A DNA stretch of 64,000 bases. It comes from Promethearchaeati archaeon SRVP18_Atabeyarchaeia-1 (GTDB lineage Archaea > Asgardarchaeota > Atabeyarchaeia > Atabeyarchaeales > Atabeyarchaeaceae). Position numbers and translations under genes: made by a program. Below the pieces are notes generated by a model. It was not told the DNA's origin and did not search any database. It saw nothing but the letters and a program-made list of their open reading frames with translations. The stretch is taken from the NCBI GenBank assembly GCA_037308085.1, contig CP147779.1, forward strand, positions 2,368,001 to 2,432,000, read 5' to 3'. Shown here one piece after another: positions 44,179-55,992 of the stretch (the first letter of the stretch is position 1; each line of letters begins with the position of its first letter).

Positions 44179-44865
44179 TTAAGGCTGCGAGTGACCTTCG
44201 TTACTTTTCATTTCCGTTGCCGCTTTCTGGAGATAGTTCTTTCCGTATGAGCTGTAGAGAATCGCCAGAGGGTTATGTCCCGTCACCCGATCCTTGGCCG
44301 CCAAGATTGTTATGGGTGCCTTGGAGCATTTAATGAAGTGAGTATCATGCCCTACGCAGAGTCCGAGAAGTATGTTGAGTTCCGTGCCAGCTTTCTCAAG
44401 GACAAGCGCCTGTCCCACAGGATTGCATGCGCAGTATCCTATTGCGTATCCAGTTTTGGATATCCCCTGATACTCTGTAGGTACACCGACATCGCTCTTT
44501 GAGATGGCGCCAAACTTACAGTTGACTGAGCAAACCTCAAACCCCAATCCCTCGAGGAACTGGGCGACAAGCGCCGCCTCATCCTTCAGACCGACGCAAA
44601 AAGCGAGACCCAGCTTCCCATACCCCATGAGCTTGGCAAACTCGGCGATCTCGCGCAGCCTCGGCCATTCCGCGTATCCAGCTGCCTCCACGATTCCAGC
44701 ATTTACCGCCAACCTCCTCTCATCATGCTTATCATAGGCCAGTAGTGATTCCTTAACTGAGTTGCTCTGCCCAACCATAGGGCAACCCTCTGGACCCTTC
44801 CTGCTGCCTGATACGCAAGACATGGTCCTACAATACGCGCACCTCGCCGCCAACTTCGTCACCAC
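44179..44865 (-). CDS. DUF1847 metal-binding protein
   Basis: KLGLAFCVGL, CNPVGQA, GLCVGHD, KDRVTGHNP. Confidence 0.88.
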   Translation of the reverse strand: MVTKLAARCAYCRTMSCVSGSRKGPEGCPMVGQSNSVKESLLAYDKHDERRLAVNAGIVEAAGYAEWPRLREIAEFAKLMGYGKLGLAFCVGLKDEAALVAQFLEGLGFEVCSVNCKFGAISKSDVGVPTEYQGISKTGYAIGYCACNPVGQALVLEKAGTELNILLGLCVGHDTHFIKCSKAPITILAAKDRVTGHNPLAILYSSYGKNYLQKAATEMKSNEGHSQP

Positions 44866-44924
44866 GCTTGGATCCTTCTAGTCTGAACCTCATTTTGGAC
44901 GCTTCCATATATCCGGAGTGCTTT

Positions 44925-45248
44925 GTGACGTCCTCCAACGACTGAGGTCGTTGGCTTCCACCACTTTTTTGTTCTCGCCTCGTCGCCGAGGTCGCAGGTT
45001 CGCACGTAGCTTTCAGAAGGTGTTGCAAGGTTCACGGCTCTCGAGCCCTTCACACGTTGCGGCACGGCCGTGTTGGGCAGAGGCTTGTTCATCCCGTGTT
45101 CTGGCTGCGTCAACTTTCGGCTCGTTGATTCGAGTCCAGCCCGCCCCCTCAGGGAACTTCGCCCCTTCGGGGTGCACCCAGTCTGCTGGGCTACCAGCGT
45201 TGGTTGGTGCCCCCATTGGAGACTTACGCTCCAACACCCAGGCACCCA
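44925..45248 (-). ncRNA. Candidate ~320-nt structured RNA inside E1
   Basis: TTTATAT TATA at 45271-45277 (minus); several stems (GGUGCC/GGCACC, UUGGAG/CUCCAA, CCCAG/CUGGG, CCCC-GAA-GGGG, CCUCG-GCGA-CGAGG). Confidence 0.6.
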
Positions 45249-45367
45249 TTTAAATATGCCCGCAGATAGCATATAAACTTACAAGACAAGGGGGTTGTCC
45301 AGCCTGAAGGCTGGCACGCAATTCAACCAACCGCTGAAGCATGTTGGGTTTCTTGCTCAACCTATTT
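44925..45367 (-). mobile_element. Non-autonomous IS200/IS605-type element E1 with RNA-like cargo
   Basis: Left end TTAG|...AAAC-hairpin; right end GAAG-CCAACGAC CTCA GTCGTTGG...TCAC|; no credible ORF. Confidence 0.8.
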
Positions 45368-45671
45368 CTAAAATACCTAGCTAGAGATTATGCCAGTATG
45401 ATCCCAAGGCATCAAGTGCGTGACGCTTCGCTATTGCTCGCCGGTTGCGATGGGCTTTTCGAACTGGGTTGGATGGTAGAAGGGCACAACTAGAGGAAGG
45501 CAATCGAGGTAGCAAATGAAGGTTTGTCGTGCTCCTCTGGTTACAGTTGTTTTGAGGGATCAGTTTTGGAAGGCAAAGGCACAGGACGTTCAACGGGACA
45601 TGGGGAGTATTTCCCAGTGCGGCAACCATTAAGTAAGGGTCGGAGCTCATAATCTGAGCCGCCCCTTGATG

Positions 45672-45699
45672 TGTTACAATGTAACATAACCCTTAAATA
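45672..45699 (+). promoter_or_regulatory. Palindromic operator plus TATA of the tusA-dsrEFH operon
   Basis: TGTTACA-A-TGTAACA (45672-45686) just upstream of CTTAAATA. Confidence 0.6.
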
Positions 45700-45747
45700 T
45701 CAGCATTAAAGCATAACTTTGATAATAGTGATGAGTTAGCGCCTAAC

Positions 45748-46035
45748 ATGATGATTGAGAGTTATGGAGAATTATCGATGGCAAGCAAAACTAGCCAAAG
45801 TTCGGCCAAGGCGGATTTGGTTATCAACGCCCTTGGTCAGAAATGTCCCATGCCGATCCTGACCCTCAAAGACAACCTAGAGAGCATCAGGGTGGGTCAG
45901 ACGGCAGAACTGATCGGGGACGACATCGGCTCCAAGACAGATGTCCCCGCCTTCTGCAAGCGGACCGGCCAGGAACTTCTTAAGACTTGGGAAGACAACG
46001 GGACCCTCCATTTCCTGATCAAGAAATTGAAGTGA
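45748..46035 (+). CDS. tusA: TusA/SirA sulfur carrier
   Basis: GQKCPMP, D.G...DVPAFC. Confidence 0.88.
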   Translation: MMIESYGELSMASKTSQSSAKADLVINALGQKCPMPILTLKDNLESIRVGQTAELIGDDIGSKTDVPAFCKRTGQELLKTWEDNGTLHFLIKKLK

Positions 46036-46056
46036 ACTACTCATGGCAAGTGGGCG

Positions 46057-46428
46057 GTGAACATAGCATTGGTGTCCTTTGCTTTCCTGGTCTGCACAGG
46101 TCCGTACACCTTCCAGAACTCAGATACGCTATACGCGATGATCGACGCCCTGAAGAAGCTCGGGCATAGAGTCTCGGGAGTCTTCTTCTATATCGACGGC
46201 GTCATAAACGTCTCCAAGAAAATCAAGGTAGAAAAAGGAGTCAGGGATCTGCCTGCGAAGCTTCAGCTCCTAGTCGAGAGCGGCATTCCAATTGTAGCAT
46301 GTAGCGCATGCTCGGACTACCGAGGTATAGACAATGACAATATTGCCAACGGAGCCCAACTCGGAGGACTCATGACCCTATCAGACTACATAGAGGAGTC
46401 CGACAAGATTGTGGTGTTTAGTCTATGA
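46057..46428 (+). CDS. dsrE: DsrE/TusD-like sulfur relay protein
   Basis: GPY, VFFYIDGV, CSAC..RG, LGGL. Confidence 0.85.
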   Translation: MNIALVSFAFLVCTGPYTFQNSDTLYAMIDALKKLGHRVSGVFFYIDGVINVSKKIKVEKGVRDLPAKLQLLVESGIPIVACSACSDYRGIDNDNIANGAQLGGLMTLSDYIEESDKIVVFSL

Positions 46429-46434
46429 GATCAG

Positions 46435-46714
46435 GTAACCTCTTCCCATGGCTGAAGCTTGTGGGCTTGTTTCCGTTTCGTTTGTTGGTCGCCGCCCGTC
46501 GCCGGGTCGGTGTTTCGGAAGCCACGCCGGTGGGGGGAAGTGGCGACTCCCGGGCTTTCGCGCGCCGCGCTTTTCCAGCCCGCTCACCTCGCCAGACGGG
46601 GTGGGTTACGCTTCGCGTCTCCGTGCTCGGAGACCACCCTCTGCGCCGGGAAACAGAGACTCAGGCTTTGCATTGGGGGCGCCACCCCGCGCGGTCTCGC
46701 CCCGGCGCCAATGC
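46435..46714 (-). ncRNA. Candidate ~280-nt structured RNA inside E2
   Basis: TTTAAGTA TATA at 46731-46738 (minus); stems GCAUUGG/CCAAUGC, GUCUCCG/CGGAGAC, UGGCGA/UCGCCA, CGGGCU/AGCCCG, CCCG-GCGA-CGGG. Confidence 0.6.
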
Positions 46715-46803
46715 TAGGTACGCGGGAGACTACTTAAACCCGCCATTTGGCGACGGCAGTTCCTCCCACGCCTAAAAGGCGTGGGCTTCCCTGAGACAGA
46801 ATG
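46435..46803 (-). mobile_element. Non-autonomous IS200/IS605-type element E2 with RNA-like cargo
   Basis: Left end TCAC|14 nt|GAAG-CCCACGCC TTTTA GGCGTGGG; right end CAAG-CCCACAAGC TTCA GCCATGGG...TTAC|; lies between dsrE and dsrF. Confidence 0.8.
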
Positions 46804-46813
46804 GTGAATCCGT

Positions 46814-47179
46814 ATGGCAGGGCACAAGGTGGTCATCGTTTTCAATAAGGCTCCTTATGAGCGAATCTCAGTCGTTGAGGGGTCTAGGGCGATTGGCGGA
46901 GTAGTGACAATGGGGACTGAAGGGATTGCGGTCTTTGTCGACGATGGTGTGTGCGCATTGCTGAAGAACCAAGATCCTGCTGGTTCTGGTCTTGAGTCAA
47001 TCCTAAGCTGGTTGAAGCTTCTTGAGAAGAGCAGAGTTCCGATGAAAGTTGTGCGTGAGTCTTTGTCTGAGAGAGGTGTCGACGAGTCCGATTTGCTGGA
47101 ACTGGGTGGCCTTGAGGTGATTTCGAGGGATGAGCTTGGGAAGCTAGTGCTTGGCTATAATTCAGTCTTCGTGATCTGA
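46814..47179 (+). CDS. dsrF: DsrF/TusC-like protein
   Basis: KAPY, EG.RA, FVDDGV.ALLKNQ, ESLSERG. Confidence 0.82.
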   Translation: MAGHKVVIVFNKAPYERISVVEGSRAIGGVVTMGTEGIAVFVDDGVCALLKNQDPAGSGLESILSWLKLLEKSRVPMKVVRESLSERGVDESDLLELGGLEVISRDELGKLVLGYNSVFVI

Positions 47180-54555: not shown

Positions 54556-54720
54556 AAAAGATATTGACACAATGTCTGACATACTCCCACAGCTAAAGCT
54601 TGTGGGGTTCTGAGGCCGTTGTCGTCCGCAACGTTGCCTCTTGGGGCGTGCCAGTGCTGCCCTCCAGCGCATCCCTGTCTACGCTGGATCGAGAGACGCA
54701 CTCATGGCGCAACGCTATGT
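54556..54720 (-). ncRNA. Predicted TnpB omega/reRNA (scaffold plus ~20-nt guide from flank)
   Basis: Established TnpB architecture; stems such as UCCAGCG/CGCUGGA over the tnpB 3' end; guide ACAUUGUGUCAAUAUCUUUU. Confidence 0.6.
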
Positions 54721-55717
54721 TGAACGACGCGTTGACGTCGGCGTTCTCAACGTGTCCACACGACGGACACTTGAAGTGCTTGCCGCTCCTGGTGCCCATG
54801 TGACCGCACCTTGAACATGCCCTGGATGTGTAGGCTGGTTCAACATAGGCGACGGGTACTCCTTGCAGCCTGGCCTTGTACCCCACAAACCCCTGCAGTT
54901 GGTGGAATGACCAGCTGTTCAAAGAATACCTGAACGACTTTGCCTGCCTTCGGCTTCCGCGGATGCCTTCCAGACGTTCGAGCTTAATGCCTCTGCCAAG
55001 CGATGCAGCAAGACCAACTATCTTCCTGCTAACCTTGTGGTCGAGGTCCCTGATGATCCGGCTCTCTCTATTCTTGATCCGCTTGAGCGTCCTGTACCGT
55101 CCCTGTTTCTGAAGCTTGCGGCGGATGCACTTGTACTTCTTGTGGACGTGTTCTGCCTGCTTTCCGAGCTTCCACACTTTGCCAGTCTCTGGGTCAGATG
55201 CCACAGCAATGTGACCGGTGGTGTTGAGGTCGACGCCAACATACCCCCTCGGCTCGAAGCGCTCCTTCTCTCGGACGGAGACGCATATGTAGGCGTACTC
55301 GTTGCCTATCTCTATCTGGTTGACCGTCTCAAAGTCCGGGAAATGCTCGCACGCCAAGGCGAGTCTCAGGCATGGAATGGTTATGGTGCGCTTCTCCTTG
55401 TCCGTCTTGATGCCTTGCCCTGGCACAGTGAGCTTAATGTTCCGGACCTTCCTGATCTTCTCGTTTCTGCCGTATTTCCTTAGTATCTGGTTTGCTATGC
55501 TGGTCTTGAGGCCTATGTGCTTGACGTCTTTTGAGGAGAAGGTTCGGTGTCTGACCCCGAAGTCTGCTACCTGCCTCGCTTTCCTCAGTTCCTCGCAGAA
55601 GTCTCTGCCATGCTTGACCTTGAGGGTTAAAAGCATGTTACTATCTAAGGCTTGGCCATATTTATATTCGCCATTCATCCCACCCCTAAAGGGCGTGGGC
55701 TTTCTGGCTGATCTTTT
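54576..55717 (-). mobile_element. IS200/IS605 family (IS1341-type, tnpB only) element
   Basis: Left end TTAC|...AAAG-hairpin; right end GAAC-hairpin...TCAG|; no target duplication. Confidence 0.92.
54593..55636 (-). CDS. tnpB: RNA-guided endonuclease TnpB
   Basis: RuvC GVDLN, KLERL, NADVNAS; CSRC/CPSC zinc finger; stop codon lies in the right-end hairpin. Confidence 0.92.
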   Translation of the reverse strand: MLLTLKVKHGRDFCEELRKARQVADFGVRHRTFSSKDVKHIGLKTSIANQILRKYGRNEKIRKVRNIKLTVPGQGIKTDKEKRTITIPCLRLALACEHFPDFETVNQIEIGNEYAYICVSVREKERFEPRGYVGVDLNTTGHIAVASDPETGKVWKLGKQAEHVHKKYKCIRRKLQKQGRYRTLKRIKNRESRIIRDLDHKVSRKIVGLAASLGRGIKLERLEGIRGSRRQAKSFRYSLNSWSFHQLQGFVGYKARLQGVPVAYVEPAYTSRACSRCGHMGTRSGKHFKCPSCGHVENADVNASFNIALRHECVSRSSVDRDALEGSTGTPQEATLRTTTASEPHKL

Positions 55718-55992
55718 GTAAGCTTGCCTTCAACTTTCCAGCTGGACCTATAGAGCTGGCAGATTTCGTGGGGTTGGACACCTTGCTTCATGTTCTTGAA
55801 TACCTGCACAAAGAGACTGGAGACCCTCACTATGCGCCCCCGCTGATAGTTAAGAAGCTCGTGAAGTCTGGCTTCAAGGGATTCAAACCTGGATCAAGAG
55901 GAGGATTTTACGAATACTTCAAGATCAAGAGGGAGCCGATGCTAAAGTGACGGAAAGCTATTCCAGTTACCTTTTCCTCTTGGCGCCTGGGC

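Follow-up and report, generated by a model that had tools for sequence, protein, structure and literature searches.

IS200/IS605 elements, among them IS608, are mobilised by Y1 TnpA proteins. IS608 TnpA contacts the subterminal hairpin together with an adjacent 4-nt guide, and this guide, located 5′ of each hairpin, pairs with the cleavage site.

Derivatives of such elements that lack genes are also on record. PATEs often encode omega RNAs (Meers et al., PMC10055086), and stand-alone omega RNAs work in trans according to Altae-Tran et al. as cited in PMC10691335. In Halobacterium, a PATE-derived RNA is expressed, and the archaeal RNA HgcC has been linked to IS1341-type right ends (PMC4615843).

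Here, we describe two elements, A and B, within a window of 64,000 nt from Promethearchaeati archaeon SRVP18_Atabeyarchaeia-1 (CP147779.1, positions 2,368,001-2,432,000; assembly GCA_037308085.1). Both are non-autonomous, gene-less IS200/IS605 derivatives of the PATE-like kind in an Atabeyarchaeia (Asgard) genome. A first-pass annotation made from the sequence had proposed a candidate new system. Because stand-alone omega RNAs and PATE-derived RNAs have already been published, A and B are instead a fresh example of a described kind of element. The proposal falls both on the side of the elements, where mobilised stand-alone omega RNAs and omega-RNA-encoding PATEs are known (PMC10691335, PMC10055086), and on the side of the RNA family, where work from 2015 had connected PATE-derived RNAs and HgcC with the right ends of IS1341/tnpB elements (PMC4615843).

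Anatomy of two gene-less elements

A and B have the anatomy of mobile elements, including a copy family, ends and promoters homologous to those of resident IS elements, and a conserved, covarying right-end module. The first-pass annotation had noticed two ORF-less, GC-rich stretches on the minus strand with a common layout, and this description stands: their GC content is 62-70% compared to 49.6% for the genome, and both run from an end hairpin through a TATA box, a structured segment and an A-rich linker to the right-end hairpin. Their parts, and a resident element used for comparison, are listed below.

44925-45367, minus strand: element A, 443 bp, a PATE-like IS200/IS605 derivative without genes, present once in the genome
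45327-45348, minus strand: left-end subterminal hairpin of A, CCCAACAUGC-UUCA-GCGGUUGG, resembling the right-end hairpin of A
45270-45278, minus strand: TATA box of A, GTTTATATG, invariant in the three A-family copies; the same box precedes tnpA in the parental-type IS605
45020-45247, minus strand: 5′ RNA domain of A, about 230 nt, GC-rich, lineage-specific
44925-45019, minus strand: right-end module of A, with an outer helix, a GNRA (GCGA) hairpin at 44976-44994, the right-end hairpin at 44935-44954 and the terminus GACGUCAC
46435-46803, minus strand: element B, 369 bp, an IS200/IS605 derivative without genes, which has eight copies in the genome
46765-46785, minus strand: left-end hairpin of B, CCCACGCC-UUUUA-GGCGUGGG, with GAAG just before it; kept in all full copies
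46731-46739, minus strand: TATA box of B, GTTTAAGTA, which is TTTAAATA in other copies; its position is conserved
46535-46712, minus strand: 5′ RNA domain of B, about 175 nt, found only in Atabeyarchaeia
46435-46534, minus strand: right-end module of B, with a GNRA hairpin at 46493-46509, the linker AAACGAAAC, the right-end hairpin at 46445-46465 and the terminus GAGGUUAC
54576-55729, minus strand: resident tnpB-only IS element (comparison), with a TnpB frame of 378 aa and a PF07282 match

The eight copies of B in the genome share 68-85% identity and have base-exact ends. They lie in unrelated contexts with no flank repeated among them, preceded on the left by TTCAC, TTTAC or ATCAC (a T-Y-A-C target) and closed on the right by GGTTAC. 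Two extra copies were found, one in G002 (Candidatus Atabeyarchaeum deiterrae, a sister genus), again with base-exact ends, and one on a metagenome contig; a B-specific pattern gave 36 hits in the scan of the genome collection, with that in Candidatus Atabeyarchaeum deiterrae the only real one, and 42 hits in the metagenome scan, one of them real. The A family is smaller. A blastn search of A against its own genome returned only A itself, and the family comprises three copies in two genomes, namely A and two in the same-genus genome G001 (G001a, G001b). Their alignment starts after TTAG/TTAC and stops at GTCAC with differing flanks on either side, and their insertion targets are TTAG, TTAG and TTAC. 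One correction concerns the left end of A: the hairpin at 45299-45314, previously taken for it, is a second, inner hairpin, and the true end is at 45367, after TTAG.

Both elements show the traits expected of PATEs. The subterminal hairpins are alike, imperfect and on the same strand at both ends, and there are no terminal inverted repeats. The left and right ends of B read GAAGCCCAC..GUGGGAGGA and AAAGCCCAC..GUGGGAAGA, those of A AAACCCAAC..GGUUGG and GAAGCCAAC..GUUGG. The insertion point is always 3′ of a short, fixed target, which is not duplicated, as seen in the eight B copies and the three of the A family. As read from the sequence, there is pairing between the tetranucleotides 5′ of the hairpins and the cleavage sites, AAAG with TTAC at the right end of B and GAAG with TCAC at the left end of B and the right end of A.

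The genome encodes about 42 tnpB and three tnpA genes, and the left ends and TATA boxes of A and B are copied from resident elements that retain their genes. The left end of A is 86% identical over 83 nt to a resident IS605 (E 6e-21), with a colinear TATA box matching at 10/10 positions; the genes of this IS605, a tnpA of 131 aa and a tnpB of 450 aa at genome 1573.7-1575.06 kb, were identified with Pfam. All three A-family copies keep the left-end hairpin, and so does the IS605, which is located at 1573 kb of the genome and inserts after CTAG compared to TTAG for A. For B, the corresponding matches (left end, TATA box, right-end hairpin) are to two tnpB-only elements, T1949211p and T1958870m (TnpB of about 410 aa), which like B insert after ATCAC or TTCAC. 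The two ends match T1949211p, at genome 1948.3-1949.6 kb, with E 6e-7 (left) and 8e-5 (right), and the TATA box of B has its counterpart in CCTTAAATACC, which precedes the tnpB of that element. Resident TnpB proteins whose elements use the same target/TAM are therefore at hand, from the tnpB-only elements for B and from IS605 for A.

A remnant of a transposon gene was sought within the cargos. A decayed tnpB is rejected, as tblastn with 42 TnpB proteins matches the ends only. The long ORFs (137 aa and 116 aa) had no match in a Pfam scan, and 1-nt indels between copies break the frames. A and B have no protein-coding capacity, again as in PATEs. The earlier view of mobile, protein-free elements with IS200/IS605 ends is supported: a promoter and a structured RNA replace the transposon genes.

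A right-end module with lineage-specific 5′ domains

Are the cargos of A and B homologous, as the first-pass annotation had proposed from four common features? In sequence comparison, homology is demonstrable only for the last ~100 nt, the right-end module, so that the proposal holds for this part and lacks support for the cargos as wholes. The 3′ parts align at z = 6-7, a score matched by none of 300 shuffles, and the 3′ part of A is detected by models built from B; the bulged GCGA-loop hairpin, one of the four features, is real homology. In contrast, Smith-Waterman alignments of the 5′ domains are no better than shuffles (z about 0), which removes the other three features as a sign of common cargo. 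Model R1, built from the whole B RNA, does not find the 5′ domain of A, and a profile of the 5′ domains of other Asgard sub-families finds neither A nor B in this genome. Only copy B0 has the ‘opening helix’ GGCGCC/GGCGCC, which the other B copies lack. Exact occurrences of the shared 10-mer TCCAGCCCGC are confined in the window to 45135-45144 and 46574-46583 (0.11 expected), but one 10-mer common to two GC-rich stretches of 300 nt is only weakly unexpected.

Within the module, 12 pairs in three helices changed on both sides. The covariation score of 0.294 compares to 0.174 for shuffles, none of 500 reaching it, and to 0.06-0.17 for slid controls. Model R2 scores the module of A with 54.1 bits (E 2e-8, genome-wide) and that of B with 77.3 bits. 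Folded as a single sequence, A does not exceed shuffles in stability (z -1.06). The loop of the inner hairpin stays GNRA (GCGA, GUGA, GGGA) across a changing stem, and this points to selection at the RNA level. Module loci occur in 11 of 151 Asgard genomes with the same layout of left end, TATA box, RNA and right end.

The 5′ domains are conserved on a narrower scale. Hits of R1 are confined to the B copies, G002 and a single metagenome contig. The B domain contains a GUCUCCG/CGGAGAC hairpin with six compensatory cells, and a single global fold of the B RNA is not claimed, as alignments of seven and ten sequences give different folds. In the A family, the domain is 85% conserved with some compensatory changes, and a block of 36 nt is similar to the IS605 tnpB at its 3′ end (E 0.13, colinear). 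This value was also the best in comparisons of the cargo interiors with tnpB 3′ regions by nhmmer, pairwise and chained alignment. Since the top z-scores (3-5) scatter over several tnpB families and are thus inconsistent, interior homology to tnpB 3′ ends is not accepted. A profile of the A family did not find tnpB 3′ ends either.

How is the module related to the transposon genes? The GNRA-hairpin module is missing from the 3′ ends of all 42 resident tnpB genes, so that no cognate effector can be named. At 21 of 23 module loci in other Asgard genomes neither tnpA nor tnpB lies inside 1.5 kb, and where a module locus is near tnpB the model aligns the terminal hairpin only. The same applies to the tnpB element at 54576, for which R2 confirms the earlier remark that it has nothing but the end hairpin in common with A and B. 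A fixed link between module and tnpA was considered and rejected, as no module stands beside tnpA in G001 and G011.

In an alternative reading, A and B are plain PATE/MITE debris, the module is an extended single-stranded DNA right end for Y1 TnpA, and any RNA is a functionless read-out of a relic promoter. In its favour, a 157-bp promoter-less mini-element (genome 1319878-1320034) consists of a left end and the module only, as would suit a DNA-level role too, and one module copy sits just 3′ of a tnpA gene (genome 1955202-1955322). DNA hairpins bound by TnpA would covary as well, and a tnpB partner in cis was found neither among the 42 resident genes nor at the other Asgard module loci. Yet the TATA box holds its position even where copies have diverged or belong to different genera, the inner hairpin retains a GNRA tetraloop, a motif of RNA, some 40 nt away from the cleavage site, each lineage preserves 5′ domains of 200 nt, and the absence of a module beside tnpA extends to G069. 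On balance, we regard debris with a DNA-level role as unlikely.

Since the module was never seen in cis at a tnpB 3′ end in the genomes searched, the RNA may serve a partner other than the resident TnpBs and not be a spare TnpB guide. The module could mark an old, Asgard-wide, RNA-only mobile lineage that swaps in the end hairpins of resident IS200/IS605 elements, partnered by TnpA, an unrecognised protein or none; we hold this to be decidedly unlikely. In a related version, GNRA-module RNAs form an independent Asgard-wide RNA-only lineage that has a non-TnpB partner or is catalytic and borrows IS605 ends. It would account for the same module in A and B between ends copied from two different IS families, and for an RNA that exceeds usual omega scaffolds in size. 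Nonetheless, we consider it very unlikely: the terminal hairpin and tail of A and B are of the same type as in all resident tnpB elements, a co-occurring gene was not identified, no ribozyme or other Rfam family matches, and the HgcC model connects the module with 3′ regions linked to tnpB.

This last point comes from comparison with Rfam, which gave no strong hit to a known family for A or B. At the gathering threshold the whole window had no relevant match, and at E <= 10 the region 44700-47000 yielded nothing relevant, with A and B lacking an HgcC match. RNase P, SRP, HEARO, group I/II introns and ribozymes were unmatched in these searches and, at E <= 1, in eight related loci. The only family with any match is HgcC (RF00062), always below its gathering threshold of 50 bits. 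In related Asgard modules its model reaches 15-29 bits, in five genomes at the same loci as the module model, and it scores highest in G011 (46-49 bits), immediately 3′ to tnpB remnants. Within this genome, two tnpB 3′ ends give the best matches, led by that of the element at 54576 with 19.3 bits (window 54563-54664). The architecture of the module also fits, as the HgcC consensus and the module alignments both contain a GCGA-loop hairpin, a UUCA-type hairpin and a GGAGGAnGUCA tail. The first-pass view of an RNA outside known families is therefore right with respect to RNase P, SRP, HEARO and introns, but has to be qualified for HgcC, whose model repeatedly picks the module in related genomes, below threshold.

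Transcription and possible role

The reading we favour, with modest confidence, is that A and B each carry a stand-alone, HgcC-like omega-RNA scaffold within a gene-less IS200/IS605 derivative of the PATE type, which is used with a TnpB encoded elsewhere. Of the options named in the first-pass annotation, this agrees with a stand-alone guide scaffold for a trans-encoded nuclease.

Each element keeps its left end including the subterminal hairpin, the promoter that served a former transposon gene, a structured RNA region of 275-325 nt and the right end. A resident Y1 TnpA would mobilise the elements in trans, probably cutting the left flank after T-Y-A-C or TTAG and the right end after TTAC or TCAC. 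Transcription would proceed from the promoter towards the right end. The start of the A RNA is predicted near 45245-45248 from the usual archaeal spacing between TATA box and start site, that of the B RNA near 46706-46712. As the promoter points towards the right end with no T-run terminator in between in A or B, the transcript would have to end in or cross the ~100-nt module and continue into the flank. Such a 3′ extension into flanking DNA would have the geometry of a TnpB omega (guide) RNA. A TnpB from elsewhere in the genome may then load the RNA and take the flank-derived 3′ tail as guide; the loaded protein would cut the empty donor site after excision, and repair would restore the element.

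A 244-nt wetland metatranscriptome contig starts at about position 70 of a B-type RNA, reaches the right end and runs on for 36 nt into a different flank; it is a single contig that includes neither left end nor promoter, from a library that may contain DNA. The RNA runs X2, X9 and X6 placed nothing on the stretch, which is no evidence of absence.

The setting of B invites a further thought. The element occupies the entire gap between two DsrE-family genes, beginning 6 nt past one stop codon and ending 10 nt ahead of the next start, and it is antisense to both, so that read-through past 46435 would oppose the 3′ end of dsrE. The RNAs might thus have been co-opted by the host or the element as regulators, either through this antisense read-through or as a guide for a nuclease-dead, TnpB-like repressor; overexpression of a PATE-derived RNA did alter growth in Halobacterium (PMC4615843). 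We consider such a role highly improbable, because the copies are in unrelated contexts, conservation lies inside the element irrespective of the flanks, and none of the copies was found to have a dedicated partner gene as neighbour.

Several consequences follow. Asgard archaea, namely Atabeyarchaeia and at least ten other genomes, are added as hosts of promoter-bearing, gene-less IS200/IS605 elements with an omega-RNA-like, HgcC-like RNA. The fusion of a relic tnpA or tnpB promoter to the RNA region shows the route by which they originate. The long-unexplained HgcC acquires a concrete interpretation that can be tested, that of a mobile guide-RNA scaffold. For annotation, GC-rich islands of this kind should not be labelled as genes or novel ribozymes, and every copy flags a possible TnpB target site.

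Comparison with known systems

With IS608 and ISDra2, whose Y1 TnpA works by ‘peel and paste’, A and B share subterminal hairpins on one strand, a fixed site of 4-5 nt and insertion without duplication. The 4-nt guide pairing is also that of IS608, in the form of AAAG with TTAC. Unlike these transposons, A and B contain neither tnpA nor tnpB, and mobilisation would have to take place in trans.

HgcC of Methanocaldococcus and Pyrococcus is likewise an archaeal, GC-rich, stand-alone RNA, with a hairpin closed by a GGCGAC (GCGA) loop, a UUCA-type hairpin at the right end and the GGAGGAnGUCA tail. A and B differ from it by an extra 5′ domain of 175-230 nt and by their scores, which are absent for A and B themselves and 15-29 bits for their relatives.

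Along similar lines, the sotRNAs and VNG_R0052 of Halobacterium salinarum derive from the right-end region of IS1341-type (tnpB) elements or from a gene-less end fusion, and have the same right-end tetraloop hairpin (PMC4615843). The haloarchaeal PATE is a short end-to-end fusion, whereas A and B have a promoter and a long structured 5′ domain between their ends.

A and B also resemble stand-alone omega RNAs and omega-RNA PATEs: IS200/IS605 ends, no protein gene, a putative outward-facing scaffold abutting the right end, and several mobilised copies in a tnpB-rich genome, with ends common to gene-carrying residents. What sets A and B, with their putative function in trans, apart is a GNRA-hairpin module absent from the 3′ ends of resident tnpB genes, a relic tnpA or tnpB promoter fused directly to the RNA, and an Asgard host.

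Anatomy and origin of the two elements

The source genome, that of an Atabeyarchaeia (Asgard) archaeon, is a single contig of 2.81 Mb with 49.6% GC, which encodes about 42 tnpB genes and 3 Y1 tnpA genes; the window covers its positions 2368001-2432000. The first-pass annotation had described two stretches of the window, here called elements A and B, as IS605-type ends around a protein-free structured RNA. Both are GC-rich islands on the minus strand.

Elements A and B and the resident IS605
Window 44925-45367, minus strand: element A, starting after TTAG/TTAC
Window 46435-46803, minus strand: element B, with 7 further genomic copies of 68-85% identity
Genome 1573.2-1575.06 kb: resident autonomous IS605 with tnpA (131 aa) and tnpB (450 aa)

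The layout proposed for both is borne out: a hairpin, a TATA box, a structured segment, an A-rich linker, a second hairpin and TCAC/TTAC follow one another. The homology limits of B are exact, with genomic copies starting after TTCAC/TTTAC/ATCAC and stopping at GGTTAC. They are identical in the copy from Candidatus Atabeyarchaeum deiterrae (CP147780.1), which belongs to the same family and is the only other species with B in a pattern scan of named genomes. Element A occurs once in the source genome, and its limits derive from two copies (~85% identity) with unrelated flanks in a genome of the same genus. Comparison with these copies places the true left-end hairpin of A at 45327-45348; the one previously taken for it is an inner hairpin. 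Searches with 42 TnpB proteins detected no coding remnants inside A and B. Long ORFs across both gave zero Pfam matches, and single-base indels between copies disrupt the reading frames of either element.

The ends point to two separate sources. The first 83 nt of A match the left end of the resident IS605 with 86% identity (E 6e-21), and the two share the right-end hairpin type GGAAGCCAAC and the position of the TATA box GTTTATATG, which in the IS605 lies upstream of tnpA. Left end, TATA box and right-end hairpin of B match those of two resident tnpB-only elements (T1949211p and T1958870m), which, like B, are inserted after TCAC. Based on these matches, A and B are relatives, reduced in their interior, of two separate IS families resident in the genome, and the old gene promoter now reads directly into a non-coding region. 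In IS608, the 4 nt located 5' of each hairpin pair with the cleavage site; as read from the sequence, the corresponding stretches and cleavage sites of A and B (AAAG/TTAC, GAAG/TCAC) seem to follow the same pairing. We hold with high confidence that A and B are gene-less IS200/IS605 mobile elements.

A conserved module at the right end

The two cargos had been regarded as homologous. This holds for the last ~100 nt, the right-end module (z = 6-7, equalled by 0 of 300 shuffles), but the 5' domains remain at shuffle level, and a covariance model spanning the full B RNA detects A solely via its 3' part. The shared 10-mer GCGGGCUGGA exists and is unique within the window, but is weak evidence taken alone, and the supposed common opening helix is not kept among B copies.

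A covariance model of the module (R2; 98 positions, built from 13 diverse copies) contains an outer helix, a GNRA-loop hairpin and the right-end hairpin, with 12 pairs changed on both sides across these three helices. Its covariation of 0.294 compares with 0.174 when shuffled (0 of 500 equal it) and 0.06-0.17 when partners are slid. A rival explanation takes the module as a DNA-level extended right end. In two short gene-less elements (genome 1319878-1320034 and 428635-428782), the module is present and the 5' RNA domain absent; the former is a B-type left end joined to the module without a TATA box.

Apart from these two, R2 matches in the source genome are confined to element A, the copies of B and a single site 3' of tnpA, with none at the 42 tnpB 3' ends. 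Matches occur in 11 of 151 Asgard genomes, at up to 16 copies per genome, and tnpA or tnpB within 1.5 kb is absent at 21 of 23 Asgard module loci. The loci read there have a uniform layout of left-end hairpin, TATA box, ~200 nt of GC-rich, lineage-specific sequence, module and GUCAC. Module-bearing elements form a widespread family of gene-less RNA carriers. The 5' domains of different sub-families show no mutual alignment by profile.

The site 3' of tnpA lies directly behind this gene within a divergent tnpA/tnpB unit (genome 1955202-1957008), whose far end, past tnpB, bears an unrelated hairpin GCCCCCUGUUUCAACAGGGGG..GUUGAC; the unit is either one IS605 or two nested elements. In one draft Asgard genome (G011), many module copies lie 30-170 nt from the ends of several contigs, so this repeat family probably interrupts short-read assemblies of Asgard genomes.

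Possible transcription and neighbouring genes

In a small wetland metatranscriptome, one contig of 244 nt shows ~91% identity to a B-type copy. It begins near RNA position 70, extends across the right end to include 36 nt of a different flank, and lacks left end and promoter. This fits a transcript crossing the right end. The observation comes from one contig only, which may stem from carried-over DNA.

Genes next to element B
Window 45748-46035: TusA gene, upstream of the DsrE-family genes
Window 46057-46428, plus strand: DsrE-family gene
Window 46814-47179, plus strand: DsrE-family gene

Element B occupies the entire gap (46428-46814) between the DsrE-family genes, 6 nt past one stop codon and 10 nt ahead of the following start codon, in antisense orientation to both. 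If its RNA were read through beyond 46435, it would run antisense to the 3' end of dsrE. A takeover of the RNAs for regulation is a rival, less favoured reading. A DUF1847 gene (44179-44865), on the same strand as element A, begins 34-60 nt downstream of where A ends, and read-through would enter that gene in the sense direction; a TATA-like ATATAT box of the gene's own is located immediately past A (44865-44925).

HgcC, TnpB guide RNAs and known systems

The sole Rfam family responding is HgcC (RF00062), with 20.9 bits for a copy in another Asgard genome (G069). Like the module, its consensus has a GGCGAC-loop hairpin, a UUCA-type hairpin and a GGAGGAGGUCA tail. In five Asgard genomes, sub-threshold HgcC matches (15-29 bits) coincide one for one with R2 loci. 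The strongest matches in these genomes reach 46-49 bits, against a threshold of 50, and are placed immediately 3' of tnpB remnants, the omega-RNA position.

Best two HgcC matches in the source genome
Window 54563-54664: tnpB 3' end, 19 bits, sub-threshold; part of the window's own tnpB element
Genome 1964743-1964844: tnpB 3' end, 19 bits, sub-threshold

HgcC matches, though always below curated thresholds, bridge the module to TnpB guide RNAs, and their location at tnpB 3' ends suggests a single continuum comprising HgcC-type RNAs and tnpB omega RNAs. In direct tests, interior homology of A or B to tnpB 3' regions was never significant. A further rival view takes the module RNAs as a TnpB-independent lineage. 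Genome-wide, a family of about 9-13 tnpB genes ends in ..GAGGTAA|CAGAACC (e.g. genome 951144, 54995, 1251961) and not in an IS605-type hairpin.

In the mechanism we favour, A and B would be mobilised in trans by TnpA, a relic transposon promoter would express an HgcC-like scaffold of the omega-RNA type, and a 3' tail from flanking DNA would guide TnpB encoded elsewhere. Our confidence in a guide-RNA function for TnpB is moderate, since the module is absent in cis from every resident tnpB and is retained by a mini-element that lacks a promoter.

The paper on mobile elements of Atabeyarchaeia makes no mention of tnpB or of A/B-type elements (PMC11529989). PATE-derived RNAs, tnpB-overlapping sotRNAs and HgcC were already connected in 2015 (PMC4615843), and mobilised stand-alone omega RNAs acting in trans are given as known (PMC10691335). 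Meers et al. noted frequent encoding by PATEs of omega RNAs that serve TnpB in trans (PMC10055086). The initial proposal of a new system is hence unsupported: A and B are of an already described kind, with stand-alone omega RNAs and omega-RNA-encoding PATEs as the closest known systems.
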